From Verrucomicrobiota bacterium (GTDB lineage Bacteria > Verrucomicrobiota > Verrucomicrobiia > Chthoniobacterales > UBA10450): DNA of 44,747 nt. Position numbers and translations under genes: made by a program. Below the pieces are notes generated by a model. It searched no databases. It worked only from the letters and a program-made list of their open reading frames with translations, and was not told the DNA's origin. The stretch is from positions 1 through 44,747 of the forward strand of contig JBEEHO010000087.1 of the NCBI GenBank assembly GCA_041167425.1, given 5' to 3'. Shown here in pieces: positions 31,335 through 42,245 of this stretch (position 1 is its first letter; the number at the start of each line of letters is the position of its first letter).

Positions 31335-32183
31335 ATGAACGCCGTGGGTCGCGCGTCTGTCAGACAGAGTTGCCGCAGGCCGATTCGAGTTCTATCTGTG
31401 TCGCGTATTTTGAAAAATAATCTCGCGCAAATTATCGTCGGCCTCGCGCTCTTCTTCGGCGCCCGCGAGCTCTCCTTCGCCCAGATCGCTCCCGGCAGAT
31501 TTAACGATGTGATCCTTGAGCAAATCCGGCAGATGCCGCAGGGCGGGCGCTACTCGGCCTCACGCGTCGCGACCATCCGGCTGCAATCCGCCGCGCATTT
31601 CGAGTCGGGAAAATTCTTTGTCCTGCCCGACGCAGCGTCGCCGAGTTACTGCTCCGGTGCGACCTACCTCGTTTTCATGAAAACGATCGAGGCCCTCCGG
31701 GCGCGCGGTTCGCTCCAGCTCGATTACGCCACGCTCGAAAGCCTGATGATTCATGGTCAGCGAGATGGCGAAGGCATCTGGGGCCGATGGAATGCCAATG
31801 GGCCGGGCACCGCGCGGCTTTTCCACGAGATGGATCTCGGGCAAAACTTCGACGATTTCAATGCGGCGCAGCCGGGCGATTTCATGAAAATTTTCTGGTC
31901 GCCCGAAGTGGGCCGGGCCGAGCATGGCCACTCCGTGATTTACCTGGGCATGGAAAAGAAACTTGGCCTCGATTACGTCCGTTTCTGGTCGAGCAATATC
32001 CCCACGGGCTATGGGGAGAAGAGCGTGCCGCGCACGAAAATCGTGCACGCGATTTTTTCGCGACTCGATTCGCCGGGAAATTTATCGCGCGCGCAGAGCG
32101 CACCGGCCGTGGACAAGTACCTCGCGAGTTTGTTGAGCGGTCGCTCGAGCTACGAAGAAGCCAGGGCGAAATGCGGGATGTAA
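31335..32183 (+). CDS. hypothetical secreted protein with a papain-like Cys…His pattern
   Basis: Hydrophobic signal-like segment (LAQIIVGLALFFGARELSFAQ), then SYCSGATYLVF and EHGHSVIYLG. The start is uncertain (ATG 31335, GTG 31398 or TTG 31410). No family recognised. Confidence 0.45.
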   Translation: MNAVGRASVRQSCRRPIRVLSVSRILKNNLAQIIVGLALFFGARELSFAQIAPGRFNDVILEQIRQMPQGGRYSASRVATIRLQSAAHFESGKFFVLPDAASPSYCSGATYLVFMKTIEALRARGSLQLDYATLESLMIHGQRDGEGIWGRWNANGPGTARLFHEMDLGQNFDDFNAAQPGDFMKIFWSPEVGRAEHGHSVIYLGMEKKLGLDYVRFWSSNIPTGYGEKSVPRTKIVHAIFSRLDSPGNLSRAQSAPAVDKYLASLLSGRSSYEEARAKCGM

Positions 32184-34409: not shown

Positions 34410-35291
34410 CTAATGCTTCGGGGCCCGGACGGTGCCGGTCTCCACCGCGGAGCGGCGCTGTTCCACGATCCGATCGGCGATTTCCTCGACCATTTGCTCG
34501 AGCAACATGCGCAGATGGGTGTTAGCCCGGTAATCAGCCGGCGCAATGTGCTTCACCCGATCGGCGTGCGAGGAAAGTTGATAGCATTTCTTGAAACCAA
34601 TTCGAGCGGGATCGTCGGGATTGTAAACCGCGATGGCCTCACCGCCGTTTTTCTTCATCACGGTGAAACAAGGCACGTCCGTCGGACCGTCGCCCACGTA
34701 AATCATGTTCGGAAACGGCACCGGACGGATCTCGGCGTCCATGTGATCGTTCACATCCTGCGCCATATCGAGGAGGCCTTTGTTGATGCGAAAGAGATAC
34801 TGCGTTTTCTGGGTGTGACTGATGACACGCTTCGGAAACGTGATGCGGTCCTGTTCATCAACGTCGAACTCGCAGCCGAAAATCGCGCGCACGTACGGCT
34901 GCAACCGGCTGCCATCGATCAAAATCTTCAGGCCGGATGAAATGATGTAATGCTCGACCGAAATCCCATGCGCGACCTGTTCTTCATTGAGCAGACCATC
35001 GCGAAAATCCTCGAACATTTCCGGGATGCCTTTGTAGAAATTAAGTTTCTGGCCTAACGACTTCAAGGCGGCATTGGTCGGCCGATCCATCCCGAGCGTG
35101 TCGAGGAGGACCTTCATGTAGGCCAGTTCGTTGTCGTAGCCGTTATCACGAACCAGTTCGGAGCATCGCCGCCAAAAACTTTCGGGATTGATTCCAAAAG
35201 CGGGGAAAACCGTCTCGTCCTGCATGTAGCTCGGACTAAGGGTCTGGTCGTAATCGTAGACGATCGCGATGGTGTTTTGAGGCGTGGACAC
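34410..35291 (-). CDS. HAD-superfamily hydrolase-like protein
   Basis: Motif I (VYDYDQT, DxDxT), an SSG segment and motif IV (YVGDGPTDVPCF). No signal peptide. Confidence 0.65.
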   Translation of the reverse strand: MSTPQNTIAIVYDYDQTLSPSYMQDETVFPAFGINPESFWRRCSELVRDNGYDNELAYMKVLLDTLGMDRPTNAALKSLGQKLNFYKGIPEMFEDFRDGLLNEEQVAHGISVEHYIISSGLKILIDGSRLQPYVRAIFGCEFDVDEQDRITFPKRVISHTQKTQYLFRINKGLLDMAQDVNDHMDAEIRPVPFPNMIYVGDGPTDVPCFTVMKKNGGEAIAVYNPDDPARIGFKKCYQLSSHADRVKHIAPADYRANTHLRMLLEQMVEEIADRIVEQRRSAVETGTVRAPKH

Positions 35292-35315
35292 GGCAACGAA
35301 GAACGAATCAGCGAA

Positions 35316-35963
35316 TCAGTGATTTAGCGAATGGTTATTCGCTCCGAGCCGCGCCACGAAATCGGCAAAGAGCGGCGCGTAACTTTCACCGCGCTCAGGA
35401 TGATACTGGACGGCGAGGGCGAAGGGATAATCGCGCAGCCGCATCTGCTCGATGACGTCGTCGTTCTTACACCACGCTTCCACTTCGAGACCGTCCCCCA
35501 AACGATCGACCGCCTGGTGATGCGAGCTGTTCACTTTGTCGAGACGGTGAGTCGCGGCGCGCTCGGTGCGCAAAGGCTGCACGTTGTGATCGCGCATTTC
35601 CGGCGCGTTATGTCCAGGGATGTCGAGATGCAGAGTGCCGCCGAGCGCGACGTTGAAGAGCTGCATTCCCTTGCAGATGGCAAAAATCGGCAAATGGCGC
35701 GCGAGCGCGGCCCTGGTCGCGGCAAATTCCCAGCGATCACGGTTCGCGTCGACATCCTGGTCGAGGATCGATGGATCGGGCACCGGCTGTTTCAAAAATT
35801 CCGGCGCGATATCGGGACCGCCGGTGAGGAGGAGGCCATCCATTTTTTCCAGCGGAACCTCGCCCTGCGCTGCATTCCAGAGACGCACCTCGGGATGCTT
35901 CGCAAAGGCGCGATGAAACCACTTCTCATCCTTGGGGCGAATCCAGGTAGCTACATTGAGCAT
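35316..35963 (-). CDS. class I glutamine amidotransferase / peptidase C26 (gamma-glutamyl hydrolase, PuuD-like)
   Basis: Nucleophile elbow AICKGMQLFNVALGGTL and the QYHPE His-Glu motif. Confidence 0.85.
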   Translation of the reverse strand: MLNVATWIRPKDEKWFHRAFAKHPEVRLWNAAQGEVPLEKMDGLLLTGGPDIAPEFLKQPVPDPSILDQDVDANRDRWEFAATRAALARHLPIFAICKGMQLFNVALGGTLHLDIPGHNAPEMRDHNVQPLRTERAATHRLDKVNSSHHQAVDRLGDGLEVEAWCKNDDVIEQMRLRDYPFALAVQYHPERGESYAPLFADFVARLGANNHSLNH

Positions 35964-36011
35964 GGCGGACTTTGCGACCCATCATCTCCGTTGTAAATAG
36001 CAGCCGCCATC

Positions 36012-36863
36012 ATGGACGAACCACAGAAGAGCGAGATGCTGCGGCGCGCGTGTGATGACATCATGCGCGAGAGCAAGGCCGTGGCTTACGCGGTGGCGCT
36101 GCTCGATTACGAGACCGGGTTTCGCTTTGCTGTTAACGCGGACCGGCGCTTTCACGCCGCCAGCACGATCAAGGTGGCGATTCTGCTCGCAGTCTGCAAA
36201 GCGATGGATGAAGGAAAATTTCGCGCGGATGACACGCTCCACGTCCGAAACCGTTTCCTGAGCGCGGTCGATCAAACACCGTTCCGGCTCGAGGCGGAAT
36301 CGGACGGTTATCCGCAGCTCTATCGCGCGATTGGACGAACGGCGAAAATTTCCGACCTGACGGAGTGGATGATTGTTTCCAGCAGCAACCTCGCGACGAA
36401 TCTCCTGCTCGATTACGTCACGGTTGACGAGGCCCTGAAAGTTCTGCGCGATGCCGGCGTCAACGGCGTCGATCTTCGCCGTGGCGTCGACGATACGAAG
36501 GCGCACGAGCAAAACCTGAACAACGAAACGACTGCGCAGGGCCTGCTCGATCTCTTCGCCGCATTGCGCGGCGATTTCCTGTCGAAAACGAGCCGCGATC
36601 TCGCGATCAACATTCTCTTACAGCAACGCTTCAACTCGATGATCCCCGCCCCGCTTCCGGCCCACGCCAGCGTGGCGCACAAGACAGGCGAAATATCCAC
36701 GGCCTGTCACGACGCCGGCATCGTTTATCTTCCGGAGCGCGAGCCCTACCTTCTCGCCGTGCTCACGGAAGTTGAATCGGATACCAATGGACGCCGCGAA
36801 GCGATCGCGAAAATTTCCGACGCGGTCTTTCGATGCCTGACGGGATTGGAGCCGAAAACATGA
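36012..36863 (+). CDS. cytoplasmic class-A beta-lactamase-fold serine hydrolase
   Basis: SxxK (ASTIK), SxN (SSSN) and KTG (HKTGE) motifs in class-A order and spacing. No signal peptide. Confidence 0.8.
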   Translation: MDEPQKSEMLRRACDDIMRESKAVAYAVALLDYETGFRFAVNADRRFHAASTIKVAILLAVCKAMDEGKFRADDTLHVRNRFLSAVDQTPFRLEAESDGYPQLYRAIGRTAKISDLTEWMIVSSSNLATNLLLDYVTVDEALKVLRDAGVNGVDLRRGVDDTKAHEQNLNNETTAQGLLDLFAALRGDFLSKTSRDLAINILLQQRFNSMIPAPLPAHASVAHKTGEISTACHDAGIVYLPEREPYLLAVLTEVESDTNGRREAIAKISDAVFRCLTGLEPKT

Positions 36864-37444
36864 CCACTCCGAATGATTTGCGCCCGGTCGACGGATTCAA
36901 CCTCTCCGCGGAACATCGAGCGGCTTTGCGGCCGGGCGAAGCGGTCGCCGACGAGGCCGGCAACATTCATCATCTGCCGCGATTTTTCTTCGAGGTGCCG
37001 AGCTGGGAGGAAGCGCATTCGCTGCGCGTCGCCACCCATTTTAATCTTTCGGAGTTGATGACGGTCGATTCCCGCGAAGCGGCGCTGCTCCTGCGCACCT
37101 TTCCTCATTATGTGCCGTGCGCGATTCTGGCGCTCGCCCGTTATCTCGAAGATCTCCGCCGGGAAGTCGACGCGCCGGTGTTCGTCGGCGCGAATGGCGG
37201 CTATCGATCGCCCGCACATCGTTTGAACAAAGTTCCGAGTGTGCACAATTGGGGGACGGCCGCGGACGTTTATCGTATCGGCGACAGCTATCTCGATAAC
37301 GAGAAATCCATCGAGCGCTTTGGCCGCATCGCTGCTTCGCTCGGCGCGGAAGTTTCCGTCCGTTCCTATCAGCCCGGGGACGACCATCTGCAGGTGGATC
37401 TTGGTTATCTCACTCTGGTTCCCCGCGAATGCAGCGAAATCTAA
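36860..37444 (+). CDS. LAS/M15-family zinc peptidase (D-Ala-D-Ala carboxypeptidase-like fold)
   Basis: GGYRSPAHRLN…SVHNWGTAADV (H-x6-D) plus a distal DDHLQVD His. The ATG at 36860 overlaps the upstream stop (ATGA). Confidence 0.7.
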   Translation: MTTPNDLRPVDGFNLSAEHRAALRPGEAVADEAGNIHHLPRFFFEVPSWEEAHSLRVATHFNLSELMTVDSREAALLLRTFPHYVPCAILALARYLEDLRREVDAPVFVGANGGYRSPAHRLNKVPSVHNWGTAADVYRIGDSYLDNEKSIERFGRIAASLGAEVSVRSYQPGDDHLQVDLGYLTLVPRECSEI

Positions 37445-38634
37445 AAGACGAATCCAAGGCTGGATCGCAGCTCCATCTTCCGCCGCCGCGCCCGGTCATG
37501 GGTTTGGAATCGGAGTTCTCGCTTTTCATCGATGACGTGCAGCGGCGTCCGGAAGAAGTTTTCGGCACGCCGCAGAAACTCGTCCGGAAGCGAATGATCC
37601 CGCGGACGGGTCGATCCTTTCAACTTCCCGCGGGCGGCGCCATTTACTTCGATACCGGCGTGATCGAGGTCGCGACTCCGATTGTGGAACTGGAACCGGG
37701 CTGCTGCTATCGCGCGACCCGGTTGCTTTGGGAACAGATCCAATATGTGCGGAAAGAACTCGATGCGTGGAGCGCGAAGAATGGTCTTCGTGCGCGCCTG
37801 CAAGGTTTCAGCACGCATTACAATTTATCGTTCCGCAACCCGGGCGGGACGCCCGCGAGAACACTCACCAAACTCTCTCACCTGCTCGCGCACGCGCTGC
37901 CGGCGCCGTTGATTTTGCTGGCCGCGAATCGCAAGAGCACCGCGATCGGGGTTCGGCCCCGCCACGAACGGATCGAAGTGACGGCGGACTTCACGCCGGA
38001 CGCAACGCTGATGCTGGCGAGCTGCGCGTTCATTGCCGGCGCGGTCGAGACGATGCGGACATGGCCGAGCTACGAACTGACGCAGCTGGAGGCTCATCGC
38101 ATTCCGCGTCCGCGAACCTTCCAATTGAAAAAACATTCTTCCCGGCGTGGCTGGCGCGTCCTGGCCTCGTCCCTCGCTCGCAATCCATTTACCTGCGACG
38201 TGAACGAACCTTCCTGGACACTGCGCGACGGCCGCAGGCTGAGTTGGCGGGCGATTGCGGCGGAAACACTCGCGCCCTTCCAAAAAAATATCCGGCACTT
38301 GAGTGACGCGGAGACGTTTCAACACATCGAGGCAGTGCTCGATGGTGATGCCCGTTCTCTCCTCGATTTTCCCGACAGGCCGAAGTCGTATGAGGATGCC
38401 GGACGCGACCTGGACTGGAACCGGCGTCGGTTGCGGCGCTGGCCGCAGTCAGCCTACGAGAAGGTGATTCATCGCGTGATCGCGCATGAGTCGATCCTGA
38501 TTAATGCAAAGCGCTATCGGCCGGAGCGGATGCGGGGTTGGTATGAAATCGTGTTTCGGGAAACGAAAACCGGCGCACGCCACATCTTCAACCTGGATTA
38601 CCTGGCGAAAATTTTCGCTGTGAAAAAACGATAG
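37429..38634 (+). CDS. uncharacterised protein with glutamine-synthetase/GCS2/PafA-like carboxylate-amine ligase motifs
   Basis: Long clean ORF. It carries MGLESEFSLF, LPAGGAIYFDTGVIEVATP and GFSTHYNLS, which resemble the acidic beta-strand motifs of GS-fold ligases. Start is ATG 37429 (16-nt overlap with the upstream gene) or 37498. Coding status is likely; the function is tentative. Confidence 0.55.
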   Translation: MQRNLKDESKAGSQLHLPPPRPVMGLESEFSLFIDDVQRRPEEVFGTPQKLVRKRMIPRTGRSFQLPAGGAIYFDTGVIEVATPIVELEPGCCYRATRLLWEQIQYVRKELDAWSAKNGLRARLQGFSTHYNLSFRNPGGTPARTLTKLSHLLAHALPAPLILLAANRKSTAIGVRPRHERIEVTADFTPDATLMLASCAFIAGAVETMRTWPSYELTQLEAHRIPRPRTFQLKKHSSRRGWRVLASSLARNPFTCDVNEPSWTLRDGRRLSWRAIAAETLAPFQKNIRHLSDAETFQHIEAVLDGDARSLLDFPDRPKSYEDAGRDLDWNRRRLRRWPQSAYEKVIHRVIAHESILINAKRYRPERMRGWYEIVFRETKTGARHIFNLDYLAKIFAVKKR

Positions 38635-38673: not shown

Positions 38674-39051
38674 TTATTTATCCCTGAACCAGGTGACGTC
38701 CGAGGCGACGTTTTCGTCATGCATCAGATCGGCGCCGGACGCGTAGGAAACGATGCGCATTTTTTCTCCGGCGCACGAGACCTGAAGGAATTTTCCCATG
38801 CCGTTCACCTGGCCCGCGGCGGTAATTTGCAGCTGAAAGGGCTGGCCGTCAGTGGCCCGGGTAATATCGCGATAAGGCAATGGCTTGTCCTCGCCGAATT
38901 GCAGGATCTTCGCGGTTATTACGAGTGCCTCGCCGCGGCCATTGGACCATTCCCCGAGGTAAGGAAGCGCGGACGCCTGCGCCGATGGAACAAGCAGGGA
39001 GACGGCGCCAATCAACGCGAGGAAGGTCAGGATGCGAATCGATGATTTCAT
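38674..39051 (-). CDS. small secreted hypothetical protein
   Basis: Signal peptide MKSSIRILTFLALIGAVSLLVPSAQA, using the ATG at 39051. Confidence 0.5.
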   Translation of the reverse strand: MKSSIRILTFLALIGAVSLLVPSAQASALPYLGEWSNGRGEALVITAKILQFGEDKPLPYRDITRATDGQPFQLQITAAGQVNGMGKFLQVSCAGEKMRIVSYASGADLMHDENVASDVTWFRDK

Positions 39052-39106
39052 GAGGGCGCTGGTTGAATGTTCAGCCGGCCGCAAATAACTGCAACGAAGC
39101 CCACCC

Positions 39107-40840
39107 CTACAAGCCCATCAGTTCACGCACGTATTTTACCGGCGGGCTGCCAAAGGAAATGACCGTGTCGTTATACTTCTTGAGATCGAACCTGGCGCCA
39201 TCGCGCGCCTTGGCCTGCTCGCGCAACGCCAGATGCTCGGTCACGCCGACAAAATAAGTGGAGAGCTGGGAGGAGCTCAGACGCGCGCGTTTCCACTTCG
39301 CGACCGCTTCGCCTTCCTGCTGAAATCCCTCTTTCATCATCACATCGAGCGCTTCCTGCTCGCTCATGTTCCCAGCGTGGATCGATTGATCGATGATGGC
39401 GTTGCAGATCACCCGCAGCCGCATCTTGAGCTGCTCCATTTTCACTTCCGGCCCGCCATAACCCGCTTCGGCCATGACCTGCTCGCCGTAAACCGCCCAG
39501 CCTTCGATAAAGGTGCCGCTCTGGAAAATCGCGCGCACCAAAGTCGGCGCGCGGAATTCATTCGAATGCGCAAGCTGCAAATAATGCCCCGGCATCGCCT
39601 CGTGGACGGTGAGGTCTCGCACCATATAGTTGTTATATTCCCGGAAGAACGAATCTTTGCGCTGCTGGTTCCAGTCGTTAGGCGTGGGTGCAACCGCAAA
39701 GAAAGTCTTGCCGTTCTTCTCCAGCGGTCCCGGTGAATCGCAGTAGGCGATCGCCTGCCCGCGCTTGAACTCCGGCATGACAATGACATCGAGCGGGGTC
39801 GCCGGGACCGACACCAGATTTTTTGCCCTGACGAAATCGGTCGCTTCCTTCACCACTTTTTGGGTGTCCCCTACGATCGTCTGGTCGCTGGGATGCTGCT
39901 CGGCCAGTTTGTCGAGCACCGCAGTCGTGACCTTCTTCCGATCGTCCAGCGTGGCCTGGTCCGCATTCGGAAAATATTTTTGGTAAAGAGGAAGCGCCGT
40001 TTCGTAGATCGCTTTCTGGGTCTGCTCGAGATCGGCCCGCGCCGCCTTCATCAAATCTTCCATCGACATGTCGGAAGCGAGGGCGAAGCGGAGTTTTTTC
40101 CGGAACTTGTCCGCGCCGATCCGGAAATCGCCGGTCGAGCGCGGAAGCAGATCGTTTTGGAGCCACGTCTTGTAATCGTTCAAGGCAGCCATTGCCTTCT
40201 CCTGCGCGGGCCCCAGCTGGGCCTTTGCTTTCGGCGCTTTATCGAGCGTCTCGTTGAGGCCTTCCTTGATGAGCGAAATCGCGCCCTGCGTTTGCTCGAT
40301 CGCGGTCTCGGTGTAAACCCGCGGCGGATTTTTCAGGTTTGCTTTTGCCTGCGCGATCACGCCTGGAATTTTCTCCAGGCGCGCCCGCAGACCAGCCGCG
40401 CGCTGCTCGGCGGGAGCGAAATCGCGCGCCACCAGAAGATAGAGACTGTTCGCGAGGCTCTGATTATAAAGGAGCGGATTCCATTCACGCTCCTTCAATT
40501 CCTCGAGGTCGAAAATTTCGTTGTCGATGCTGTCCTTGAGAAGACGCACGTCGACTCGGTTCGGGCCGGTTAGCCTGGTCAGGTCGCTAAATTGTTCCAG
40601 TTGTTTCCGCGCCTCCTTCGCGCGGGCGAGTTCCCTGGCGACAGTGTCGTCGGAATAATCCGTAAGCCGGTCATCGAACCGGTGGTCGCCCAGCTCCGTG
40701 GCGTATTCCGGATGGGATTGGAGCATCCCTTCGATGTAATCCTTCGCCAGCTTCTGAAACCGGTCGTCCTCCGGGGTGGCGAGCGCCGGAGCGAGGGAAA
40801 GGAACAACAACCCGGCAAAGGCGGCAGAAGATACTTTCAT
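39107..40840 (-). CDS. DUF885-family protein (putative metallopeptidase-like)
   Basis: Signal peptide MKVSSAAFAGLLFLSLAPALA and the family hallmark HEAMPGHYLQ. The start is 7 nt downstream of the POT transporter stop. Confidence 0.85.
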   Translation of the reverse strand: MKVSSAAFAGLLFLSLAPALATPEDDRFQKLAKDYIEGMLQSHPEYATELGDHRFDDRLTDYSDDTVARELARAKEARKQLEQFSDLTRLTGPNRVDVRLLKDSIDNEIFDLEELKEREWNPLLYNQSLANSLYLLVARDFAPAEQRAAGLRARLEKIPGVIAQAKANLKNPPRVYTETAIEQTQGAISLIKEGLNETLDKAPKAKAQLGPAQEKAMAALNDYKTWLQNDLLPRSTGDFRIGADKFRKKLRFALASDMSMEDLMKAARADLEQTQKAIYETALPLYQKYFPNADQATLDDRKKVTTAVLDKLAEQHPSDQTIVGDTQKVVKEATDFVRAKNLVSVPATPLDVIVMPEFKRGQAIAYCDSPGPLEKNGKTFFAVAPTPNDWNQQRKDSFFREYNNYMVRDLTVHEAMPGHYLQLAHSNEFRAPTLVRAIFQSGTFIEGWAVYGEQVMAEAGYGGPEVKMEQLKMRLRVICNAIIDQSIHAGNMSEQEALDVMMKEGFQQEGEAVAKWKRARLSSSQLSTYFVGVTEHLALREQAKARDGARFDLKKYNDTVISFGSPPVKYVRELMGL

Positions 40841-40847
40841 GACAAAT

Positions 40848-42245
40848 TTACGGCATGCCGACTTCCGTCGCCGCCTCCGGAGCCAGTTCTTCGAGTGGCA
40901 CATCCTGCGACTGCAGGTAGGTTCTGCCCCGGTAGAAGCTCGCCACGAAAACGAAAATGACCGCAGCCACCAGCATCAGCCCGGCAAAGAAGAGAAAGTA
41001 TTGCTGGTCGTTCATCTTCACTGTTCCGTCCGCGTTACGAATGAAATAATTGACGCCGGCAGTGAAGAGGTTGCCCATCGAAACGGTAAAGAGCCAAAGG
41101 GCCATGACCGCGCTTTTCATTTTGTTCGGCGCCTGGGTGTAGGAAAATTCGAGCCCGGTGATTGAGACCATGGCTTCGCCCAGGGTGAGAATCACATAGG
41201 CGAGGAACTGCCAGTTCACGCTCGGTTTTCCACCGGCATCGATCAGGCGCTGGATGTGCCAGATGACGACATAGCTCGCGGCCGTGAGAAAGAGGCCGAT
41301 GCCGATCTTACGCAAGGGAGTGAGCGGGAAAAACCGGCTGATCAACGGGTAGAGCCCGTAGTTCACGATGGGAATGAAGATCAGGATCAGGATCGGATTG
41401 GCGGTCTGAACCTGCGAGGCGATCAGGTTCATCCCGAACCAATGCAGGTCCATCTTCTGCGCCTGCAGCGTCCAGGAGCCACCGCTGCTTTGGTCCCAGA
41501 GCGACCAGAAGACCGCAACGAAAACATAGACCACCGCGAGCCGCAGAAGAGCGCCCATCCCTTCCCGGCTGAACATCTGTTTGAGAAAACCGAGGCCAGC
41601 GGGCGGAATATGAACAAATTTTTTGCGGCCGGCCCAAAAGAAAATCGTTGCGATCACCATGGCCACGCCGGGGATGCCGAAGGCCCAGCGAGGCCCGAAG
41701 CGCGGATCGGCCAGGAGAAACGGACACGCAATGGTGGAAATGAACGAGCCGGCGTTGATCGAGAAATAAAACCAGCCAAAAGTTTTCGAAAGGAGGTGCT
41801 TGTTCGACTCGCCGAATTGATCGCCGACGTTGGCGGAAACGCAGGGTTTGATGCCGCCGGAACCGAAGGAGATGAGGCCAAGGCCGAGGAGCAAGCCCAT
41901 CCGGGTGTCGTTGAGCGCAAGGGCGAAATGCCCGAAGCAGTAAACGATCGAGAGCCAGAAAATCGTCTGATATTTTCCGATGAAACCCTCGGCGAGAATT
42001 GCTCCGAAAATCGGGAGAAAATAAACGGCCGAAACGAAAAGGGCGAAGTTTTGCCGCGCTTCGGCCGGCCCCATGTGGTCGCTTGCTCCAGAACTCGTGA
42101 CCAAATATTGGGTCATGAAAACGATCAGGATCGATCGCATTCCATAGAACGAGAAGCGTTCGGCCGCTTCGTTCCCGATAATGAACGGGACGCCCGGCGG
42201 CATCGTGGAGATGTTCGGAGGCTTGGTCGCGTATTGGTAGGCCAT
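40848..42245 (-). CDS. dtpT: proton-dependent oligopeptide transporter (POT/PTR2 family)
   Basis: PTR2 signatures (GNEAAERFSFYGMRSILIVFM; FGAILAEGFIGKY) and about 12 TM segments. Confidence 0.9.
   Translation of the reverse strand: MAYQYATKPPNISTMPPGVPFIIGNEAAERFSFYGMRSILIVFMTQYLVTSSGASDHMGPAEARQNFALFVSAVYFLPIFGAILAEGFIGKYQTIFWLSIVYCFGHFALALNDTRMGLLLGLGLISFGSGGIKPCVSANVGDQFGESNKHLLSKTFGWFYFSINAGSFISTIACPFLLADPRFGPRWAFGIPGVAMVIATIFFWAGRKKFVHIPPAGLGFLKQMFSREGMGALLRLAVVYVFVAVFWSLWDQSSGGSWTLQAQKMDLHWFGMNLIASQVQTANPILILIFIPIVNYGLYPLISRFFPLTPLRKIGIGLFLTAASYVVIWHIQRLIDAGGKPSVNWQFLAYVILTLGEAMVSITGLEFSYTQAPNKMKSAVMALWLFTVSMGNLFTAGVNYFIRNADGTVKMNDQQYFLFFAGLMLVAAVIFVFVASFYRGRTYLQSQDVPLEELAPEAATEVGMP

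Follow-up and report, generated by a model that had tools for sequence, protein, structure and literature searches.

What would a beta-lactamase-fold hydrolase, a protein resembling a zinc peptidase and a ligase-like enzyme do together in the cytoplasm? The question is raised by three same-strand genes (genes 1, 2 and 3, here called the trio) on a contig of a Verrucomicrobiota bacterium of the order Chthoniobacterales (GenBank assembly GCA_041167425.1, JBEEHO010000087.1), of which the 44,747 nt analysed are referred to as the window. The functional unit at this locus consists of the three genes, joined in one order of bacteria by a divergent gene for a C26-family amidase, and it leaves out the HAD-like gene next to that amidase. 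As a ligase family and as an operon architecture the trio appears to be new, inside known enzyme superfamilies, and the cell-wall peptide chemistry it points to is probably of a known kind; no description of it was found in the searchable literature. All five open reading frames (ORFs) of the locus, together with the intergenic region and a nearby gene cluster that matters for the argument, lie in the window as follows.

36012-36863, plus strand: gene 1, a class-A beta-lactamase / PBP-A-like serine hydrolase of 283 aa
36860-37444, plus strand: gene 2, a LAS/M15-like protein of 194 aa
37429-38634, plus strand: gene 3, a predicted member of the glutamine synthetase (GS)-fold ligase superfamily, closest in structure to PafA/Dop, 401 aa
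35964-36011, no strand: divergent intergenic region of 48 bp between the C26 gene and the trio
35316-35963, minus strand: C26 gene, a lineage-specific fourth member, C26 / PuuD-like gamma-glutamyl amidase with a class-I GATase fold, 215 aa
34410-35291, minus strand: HAD-like gene, 293 aa
28839-31317, minus strand: dapB-dapA-dapF cluster, context outside the operon (Pfam DapB_N/DapB_C, DHDPS and DAP_epimerase)

Three overlapping genes in one conserved order

The order gene 1-gene 2-gene 3 on one strand was found in 128 fetched loci, and stop/start overlaps accompany this order in no fewer than four deep clades. Source taxonomy names are available for two, Verrucomicrobiota/Chthoniobacterales and Acidobacteriota; the remaining pair, L165 and L170, come from metagenomes and show the trio with overlapping reading frames too. 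Among 80 Chthoniobacterales genome loci, the arrangement of a C26 gene on the minus strand facing hydrolase, M15-like and ligase genes on the plus strand is present wherever the contig allows. This alone proves little, because the whole region is syntenic. In the Acidobacterial clades (80 metagenome loci), the trio stands in order in most loci with enough upstream flank, each of its proteins being ~44% identical to the window's copy. The overlap of the gene 1 stop with the gene 2 start is kept in most Chthoniobacterales and many Acidobacterial loci. The initial annotation, made from the window alone, had proposed a tightly coupled three-gene core and suggested checking it across related genomes, and the comparison bears it out in a range of genomes that includes two phyla.

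The junctions in the window are as that annotation described them: five ORFs, an ATGA overlap, either a 16-nt overlap or a 53-nt gap, and a divergent gap of 48 bp. At the gene 1/gene 2 junction, aaaacATGAccact, the ATG at 36860-36862 overlaps the TGA at 36861-36863. With its ATG at 37429, gene 3 overlaps the last 16 nt of gene 2, whose TAA is at 37442-37444; an alternative ATG at 37498 would leave a gap of 53 nt after gene 2. Since the N-terminus MQR... is kept in close relatives and the identical 16-nt overlap recurs in ~20 loci, the ATG at 37429 is the better start in the window's lineage. Both promoters are presumably located in the divergent gap (35964-36011), in which no sigma-70-type consensus site was found, and promoter and terminator scans gave nothing beyond the level of shuffled sequence. 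Opposite the M15-like gene, the minus strand contains a 213-aa ORF (36746-37387); since it is the sense-strand gene that is conserved across phyla, this ORF is most likely a shadow of GC-rich coding sequence.

All five proteins lack a hydrophobic segment at the N-terminus. The maximum Kyte-Doolittle hydrophobicity over 12 residues is at most 1.23, against at least 2.19 in four secreted proteins from the same window that served as controls. The earlier proposal that all five lack a signal peptide is supported by this comparison, and all five are predicted to be cytoplasmic.

Three contigs (L041, L062 and L080) in metagenome-assembled genomes labelled Nitrospirota, Pyrinomonadaceae and Dormiibacterota carry Chthoniobacterales-like copies (61-65% identity) in the same order, which suggests mis-binned contigs rather than transfer.

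The ligase-like protein and its partner enzymes

Gene 3 is invisible to sequence searches at the level of known families. The single sequence has no match in Pfam, NCBIfam, PADLOC or the PDB sequences, a profile of its family finds no PDB sequence, and 15 diverse relatives have no Pfam match even at E 10. Its AlphaFold2 (AF2) model, with a pLDDT of 80.8 and a pTM of 0.84, is matched by Foldseek to PafA (4bjr, E 2.6e-8), Dop (5lrt, 3.1e-7) and YbdK (6.5e-5), and then to GS and gamma-glutamylcysteine ligase (GCL). The top 17 PDB matches are all PafA, Dop, YbdK, GS or plant GCL, at a Foldseek probability of 0.96-1.0 and with low TM scores of 0.30-0.50 (PafA/Dop 0.44-0.50, normalised by query); by fold they place the protein in this superfamily.

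The catalytic residues point in the same direction. Iyer et al. (2008, PMC2588565) define the GS-fold superfamily by motifs along its strands: GhExE in strand 1, acidic positions in strands 2 and 3, [HD]x[NH] in strand 4, Arg both in strand 5 and in the loop that leads into it, and a further acidic motif in strand 6. Gene 3 has G25-L-E27-S-E29 on a predicted strand at 23-34, a motif present in ~160 loci and nearly invariant in the 15 diverse members. D75 (in Y-F-D) and E80 (in I-E-V-A-T) are at or beside the strands 71-73 and 79-82, and H130-Y-N132 is on strand 122-134. R176 and R178 are on strand 173-178 with R168 in the loop before it, and R181-I-E183-V-T-A-D187 is on strand 181-186, its E-x3-D spacing being one residue off the published Ex[RK]x2D. 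D75, E80, H130, R176, R178, R181 and E183 are invariant across clades, and G25, E27 and E29 nearly so, over clades that are just 24-50% identical. Judged from the model, gene 3 appears to represent an unclassified family in the carboxylate-amine ligase (GS-fold) superfamily, with PafA/Dop as its nearest members. The GS/GCS2-like motifs noticed initially in the 401-aa protein have thereby found structural company, as PafA, Dop, YbdK, GS and GCL head the Foldseek list.

The relationship with PafA and Dop is one of structure and motifs. Both are the best structural matches (E 2.6e-8 to 5.5e-6) and share with gene 3 the GhExE motif, G-x-x-x-Y-(F/L)-D ... E-x-A-T, H-x-N and an Arg-rich segment; by analogy, an ATP-dependent gamma-glutamyl-phosphate intermediate would be expected in gene 3 as well. 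An hhalign comparison of the gene 3 family with a PafA sequence (validated against 4b0t at E 5e-155) gave a weak N-terminal alignment with a probability of 15%, in which GhExE and Y-F-D..E-V-A-T stand opposite GIETEF and LYLD..EYAT of PafA, which is motif support and not proof. In contrast, there is no sequence-level match to PafA/Dop, gene 3 falling outside the Pfam Pup_ligase profile; the protein is ~50-100 residues shorter; and its partners are two cell-wall-type peptidases, with Pup and proteasome genes not seen nearby. YbdK/GCS2, GCL and GS share the superfamily fold and catalytic residues with gene 3 but are weaker structural matches than PafA/Dop, and gene 3 has no Pfam GCS2 or Gln-synt match.

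Clustering at 90% identity divides the scored candidate homologues of gene 3 into more than 3,000 groups, and every source name seen for them is 'hypothetical protein'. The close ones come from Chthoniobacterales and Verrucomicrobiota, Candidatus Udaeobacter being among the carriers, and a distant clade bears Acidobacteria/Vicinamibacteria names. A search of 1.84 billion representative proteins returned just 426 matches, and the family is therefore narrow.

Gene 1 carries the three motifs of its fold, S51-T-I-K54, S124-S-N126 and K224-T-G226 (SxxK, SxN and KTG), which are retained in nearly all loci. It matches Pfam Beta-lactamase2 with an E of 2.4e-49 and 168 bits (cut-off 22), so that the class-A fold reported for this signal-less protein from its STIK, SSN and KTG motifs is upheld. 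With the NCBIfam bla_class_A model it scores 117.7 bits, under the curated cut-off of 200. Aligned with TEM-1 it has no Glu opposite E166; a conserved acidic pair, R-G-V-(D/E)-D, lies near that position in the same loop. Of the features of a class A beta-lactamase, gene 1 has the three motifs; it lacks a Glu aligned with E166 for the Glu166/Asn170 general base of the Omega loop, a signal peptide for export and a score at the curated cut-off. On its sequence it is best taken as a class-A-fold serine hydrolase and not as a credible beta-lactamase. The nearest solved relative is PBP-A (Tll2115) of Thermosynechococcus (2j7v, E 5e-21), which shares the class-A fold and is a DD-carboxypeptidase/endopeptidase on muropeptides amidated on D-iso-Glu (PMC11189452). 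The two differ in that PBP-A was studied as a periplasmic enzyme (PMC11189452) whereas the gene 1 protein has no signal peptide, and in the Omega-loop region, where PBP-A has a five-residue gap relative to gene 1, whose longer loop holds conserved acidic residues.

The assignment of gene 2 is more delicate. It has the motifs H129-x6-D136 and D175-H176-x-Q178-x-D180, and it matches Pfam Peptidase_M15_3 at an E of 0.011 with 16.3 bits, under the cut-off of 23.2; across the family this profile hits 12 of the 14 proteins scanned, reaching an E of 6.2e-5 at best. In a profile search of PDB sequences the top match of the family is the zinc DD-carboxypeptidase 1lbu, at an E of only 0.72. The alignment spans nGGyRS..S.HM.g.AAD of 1lbu, and the gene 2 segment nGGYRS...H-x-W-G-T-A-A-D coincides with the zinc-ligand segment of that enzyme, H129 and D136 lying opposite H154 and D161 in this weak match. 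The AF2 model of gene 2 is poor (pLDDT 55.6, from a shallow alignment), and its Foldseek matches, designed proteins and histidine kinases, were set aside as noise.

In LAS enzymes the second His of the H-x-H motif is the third zinc ligand, which is consistent with the alignment of gene 2 with 1lbu. The window's protein has the H-x(3-6)-D motif and lacks an H-x-H with the second His, reading H176-L-Q178 with Gln at the canonical third zinc-ligand position. In 20 loci of the window's sublineage position 178 is Q, R or E; 55 further loci of Verrucomicrobia have His there, as do all 54 motif-matching loci from elsewhere. Asn stands in place of D136 in 33 loci of the Udaeobacter type. The residues that make up the full LAS set, H129, D136, H176, H178 and D180, occur together in every Acidobacterial and in 21 Verrucomicrobial copies. 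The catalytic motifs of genes 1 and 3 persist in nearly all loci, and constraint on the zinc site thus seems relaxed only in the order that has gained C26 as well. Of the LAS/M15 zinc peptidase first read from an H-x6-D…H pattern, then, the fold is tentatively supported by the weak M15_3 matches in 12 of 14 relatives, and the zinc site has become less certain with Gln178.

Acidobacterial copies of gene 2 (L083, L090, L099, L104, L111 and others) have an Arg/Glu-rich C-terminal tail, PRFAFEERRRGDRR, with repeated (E/D)RR. Acidobacterial gene 3 proteins (P0127-P0130) have a 100-170-residue Arg/Glu-rich insert with the same motif after window residue ~332, at a loop that is disordered in the window's gene 3 model. 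The (E/D)RR motif common to tail and insert may be an interaction or localisation signal.

The C26 protein matches Peptidase_C26 at an E of 6.6e-42 and 144 bits (cut-off 20.5) and also GATase at 4e-18, with the nucleophile C97 in CKGMQ and H188-P-E190. The initial description as a C26 protein of gamma-glutamyl-hydrolase type is confirmed as to fold. Its nearest solved relatives are Lin1909 and PuuD. It scores 73.6 bits with the PuuD equivalog model, whose cut-off is 266, and by sequence it is a member of the Peptidase C26 family and not a PuuD equivalog. It adjoins the trio in every Chthoniobacterales locus with enough flank, and its far-side neighbour varies (the HAD gene in 25 loci, an MFS-like gene in 11, others elsewhere). 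Because it stays beside the trio while the other neighbour changes, C26 is counted as a lineage-specific fourth member of the unit, linked only within Chthoniobacterales; neither C26 nor the HAD gene, nor the DUF885 and POT transporter genes described below, were found in Acidobacterial loci.

The HAD-like protein matches Pfam HAD weakly (1.4e-3; motif D13-x-D15-x-T17). From end to end it also matches PDC-S34, a candidate family for phage defence in PADLOC, at an E of 1.2e-84; PDC-S34 is absent from the literature searched. The gene is beside C26 in about half of the Chthoniobacterales loci and in no Acidobacterial locus, and where present it is 80-94% identical, above the conservation of its neighbours. 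Its membership of the module was rejected on these grounds, as a sporadic insert with a PDC-S34 match and no Acidobacterial occurrence. The earlier grouping of C26 and HAD as a divergent pair is therefore not supported, the HAD gene being sporadic and C26 linked to the trio only in Chthoniobacterales.

Cell-wall genes around the trio

The flanks of the trio vary by lineage yet keep a cell-wall theme. In the window, the dapB-dapA-dapF cluster for diaminopimelate (DAP) lies ~4.7 kb from the trio, and dapF stands directly beside the HAD or C26 gene in several Chthoniobacterales loci. In ~20 loci of one Acidobacterial lineage, dapB-dapA-dapD-aminotransferase genes are immediately upstream of the trio on the same strand, and an SLT lytic transglycosylase gene and a DPBB/RlpA-like gene immediately downstream. 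In Vicinamibacteria, PNP_UDP_1 and PfkB genes are upstream, and Transgly, Transpeptidase and LpxB genes lie within 10 kb. Genes 1 or 2 were considered as the missing DapE desuccinylase of the dapB-dapA-dapD-aminotransferase operon; this idea was set aside because the trio occurs without dapD linkage and the ligase would be left without a role.

Distant paralogues of the ligase (32% identity) have no gene 1, and each faces a convergent gene with LAS motifs (SSHKRGIDID ... NHFDHIHVRF) and a faint Peptidase_M74 match; the pairing of ligase and LAS protein is therefore older than the trio itself. One of these loci also has an NlpC/P60-CHAP-like gene and non-ribosomal peptide synthetase (NRPS) genes, and the most distant paralogue (24% identity) lies between SnoaL, TauD and carrier-protein genes. 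Another paralogue (P0136, locus L166) lies beside DndB-like, TGT-like, QueC and PTPS genes, in a cluster that resembles a 7-deazaguanine DNA-modification (Dpd-like) island.

Three further features of the window deserve mention. Adjoining dapF is the gene for a 282-aa protein (31335-32183, plus strand) that has a hydrophobic segment at its N-terminus and matches nothing in Pfam; many Chthoniobacterales loci have it in the same place. The ligase gene is followed closely by one for a predicted secreted protein of 136 aa (38674-39084, minus strand), which has no Pfam match and no homologue in 80 related loci. A secreted DUF885 protein and a POT-family peptide transporter (39107-42245, minus strand) follow the trio in most Chthoniobacterales loci, DUF885 being the right-hand neighbour in 45 of 61, and the pair may supply peptides.

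What the unit may do

From the folds, catalytic motifs, predicted location, operon structure, conservation and genomic associations we infer, tentatively and with somewhat less than even confidence, a cytoplasmic module that salvages or re-uses cell-wall stem peptides and DAP and is linked to the de novo supply of DAP; what goes beyond observation in this proposal is the choice of substrates and the direction in which the ligase works. The unit would act, inside the cytoplasm, on small peptides resembling the stem peptides of peptidoglycan, with D-Ala, gamma-linked Glu and DAP. Gene 1, through an acyl-enzyme at Ser51, would carry out DD-carboxypeptidase-type chemistry and release a C-terminal D-amino acid, and gene 2, translationally coupled to it, would cut the next bond at a D-centre; in the window's lineage, with its mutated zinc-ligand position, gene 2 perhaps just holds the peptide. 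Gene 3 would activate a Glu-type gamma-carboxylate by phosphorylation with ATP and link it to an amine; on the model of PafA, candidates for this amine are ammonia and the epsilon-amino group of DAP or Lys. Alternatively, the enzyme could work in the opposite direction, in a Dop-like hydrolysis. In Chthoniobacterales, C26 would cleave the gamma-glutamyl bond.

Salvage is favoured because of the recurrent dap and lytic transglycosylase neighbours, the substrates of PBP-A and the LAS pairing. Also counted in its favour are the trio as the only constant block across clades, the LAS signature common to gene 2 and the zinc D-Ala-D-Ala carboxypeptidase 1lbu, and the combination of C26 with a GS-fold ligase, which recalls PuuA and PuuD. 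The initial suggestion of a D-amino-acid or gamma-glutamyl peptide, perhaps muropeptide-related, gains support from the dap and lytic transglycosylase linkage.

Two further sets of known enzymes offer functional parallels. In the PuuA/PuuD cycle of E. coli, a GS-fold ligase is paired with a C26 gamma-glutamyl hydrolase, and PuuD is among the nearest solved relatives of the window's C26 protein. The intervening genes in the window are peptidases, whereas Puu has an oxidase and a dehydrogenase; the window's C26 protein scores far under the PuuD cut-off (73.6 against 266) and is linked to the ligase only in Chthoniobacterales. The second set comprises VanA-VanX-VanY and, from cytoplasmic recycling, LdcA, Mpl, MpaA and DdpX; as in the trio, a ligase in the cytoplasm goes together with a D-Ala-D-Ala peptidase of LAS type and a carboxypeptidase for stem peptides. 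Their ligases have an ATP-grasp fold (VanA) or a Mur-ligase fold (Mpl) and not the GS fold of the trio, their carboxypeptidase fold is also different, and none is sequence-homologous to genes 2 or 3.

Several observations weigh against the salvage of stem peptides. The neighbourhood conserved within one order is partly plain synteny, and the dap and lytic transglycosylase linkage is lineage-specific, being absent in the PNP_UDP_1-PfkB context of Vicinamibacteria and in Udaeobacter-type loci. Seven Acidobacterial loci have the ligase without adjacent genes 1 and 2; these look like one lineage, because they have their flanking genes in common. The M15 assignment of gene 2 is, by sequence profile, under the Pfam threshold and its structure model failed, and a canonical zinc ligand has been lost independently in two Chthoniobacterales sublineages (D136 in one, H178 in the other). 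No Rfam element turned up in the window or in five Acidobacterial loci, so neither a Lys riboswitch nor anything else of that kind links the operon to control by DAP or Lys. No characterised homologue was found and, to our knowledge, recycling pathways need a ligase only for re-attachment of the Mpl type, for which the fold is different.

The same enzymes could instead edit precursors, the ligase modifying a free carboxylate of a cytoplasmic peptidoglycan precursor, which we consider unlikely. The modification might be amidation of D-iso-Glu or DAP as by MurT/GatD, with C26 as the glutaminase in Chthoniobacterales, or a VanA-like alternative terminus. Genes 1 and 2 would clear away pentapeptide or D-Ala-D-Ala that had not been modified, as VanY and VanX do. 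A ligase with a cytoplasmic LAS peptidase and a DD-carboxypeptidase mirrors VanA/VanX/VanY, the C26 protein has the class-I glutamine amidotransferase fold (GATase, 4e-18), and a trio that is co-operonic behind dap genes fits biosynthesis. Amidation of a carboxylate is GS-fold chemistry (PMC2588565), and PBP-A, the nearest relative of gene 1, is specific for D-iGlu-amidated muropeptides (PMC11189452). However, the characterised C26 members are gamma-glutamyl hydrolases rather than ammonia donors, C26 is absent outside Chthoniobacterales, and this ligase fold is found in no known precursor-modifying enzyme. A product unrelated to the cell wall, such as a gamma-glutamyl or D-amino-acid dipeptide, a signal or an antimetabolite, with the hydrolases serving maturation or self-protection, strikes us as distinctly unlikely, even though distant ligase paralogues occur in natural-product-like contexts (SnoaL-ligase-TauD-carrier protein, and beside NRPS genes) and peptide-metabolite roles were predicted by Iyer et al. 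for orphan ligases of the superfamily linked to GATase-like thiol peptidases. The trio is near-universal in whole orders of soil bacteria (66-84% identity among the listed hits), it stands among housekeeping genes and not in variable biosynthetic islands, and its conserved neighbours include no genes for an exporter, a carrier protein or tailoring enzymes.

The structural matches of gene 3 raise another prospect, a pupylation-like system in which a PafA/Dop-like enzyme would ligate to lysines, or remove from them, a tag with a C-terminal Glu that the hydrolases process. PafA and Dop as best structural matches and the weak profile alignment over the PafA GhExE and LYLD..E.AT motifs are what speaks for it; it is nevertheless very improbable, as none of 15 diverse gene 3 members matches Pfam Pup_ligase. 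Of the linked genes expected of PafA/Dop, no conserved small ORF ending in G-E/Q was found near the trio in ~160 loci, the sole candidate in the search being the C-terminus of QueD, and no proteasome genes were seen among the annotated genes of the window or in the flanks of L161 and L162. That gene 1 is an ordinary beta-lactam resistance gene beside unrelated genes is barely credible. The Beta-lactamase2 domain with SxxK/SxN/KTG would allow it, and Udaeobacter genomes are reported, in general terms, to encode several beta-lactamases (PMC7343977). A protein without a signal peptide would not reach periplasmic targets, the score of 117.7 bits against 200 for NCBIfam class A and the missing Glu opposite E166 do not fit, the nearest solved relative is a DD-peptidase, and a chance arrangement is hard to reconcile with reading frames that overlap and with a gene 1 that is conserved together with genes 2 and 3 across phyla.

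A bolder extension of the salvage of stem peptides, which we hold to be doubtful, is that gene 3 founds a third functional PafA/Dop-like branch, one that forms or cleaves gamma-glutamyl bonds, isopeptide or amide, on intracellular stem peptides. With the PBP-like hydrolase and the LAS peptidase it would then provide Chthoniobacterales/Udaeobacter and Acidobacteriota with a route of stem-peptide re-use or precursor amidation independent of Mpl and MurT. If the trio does handle cell-wall peptides, it would bring a new enzyme fold to peptidoglycan recycling or precursor chemistry, and the scaffold of the Pup ligase would be in use outside protein tagging. The gene 1 'beta-lactamase', which could be counted as a resistance gene in these genomes, is likely a mis-annotation that would then be corrected. 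Among the carriers, Udaeobacter is described as globally abundant in soil (PMC7343977).

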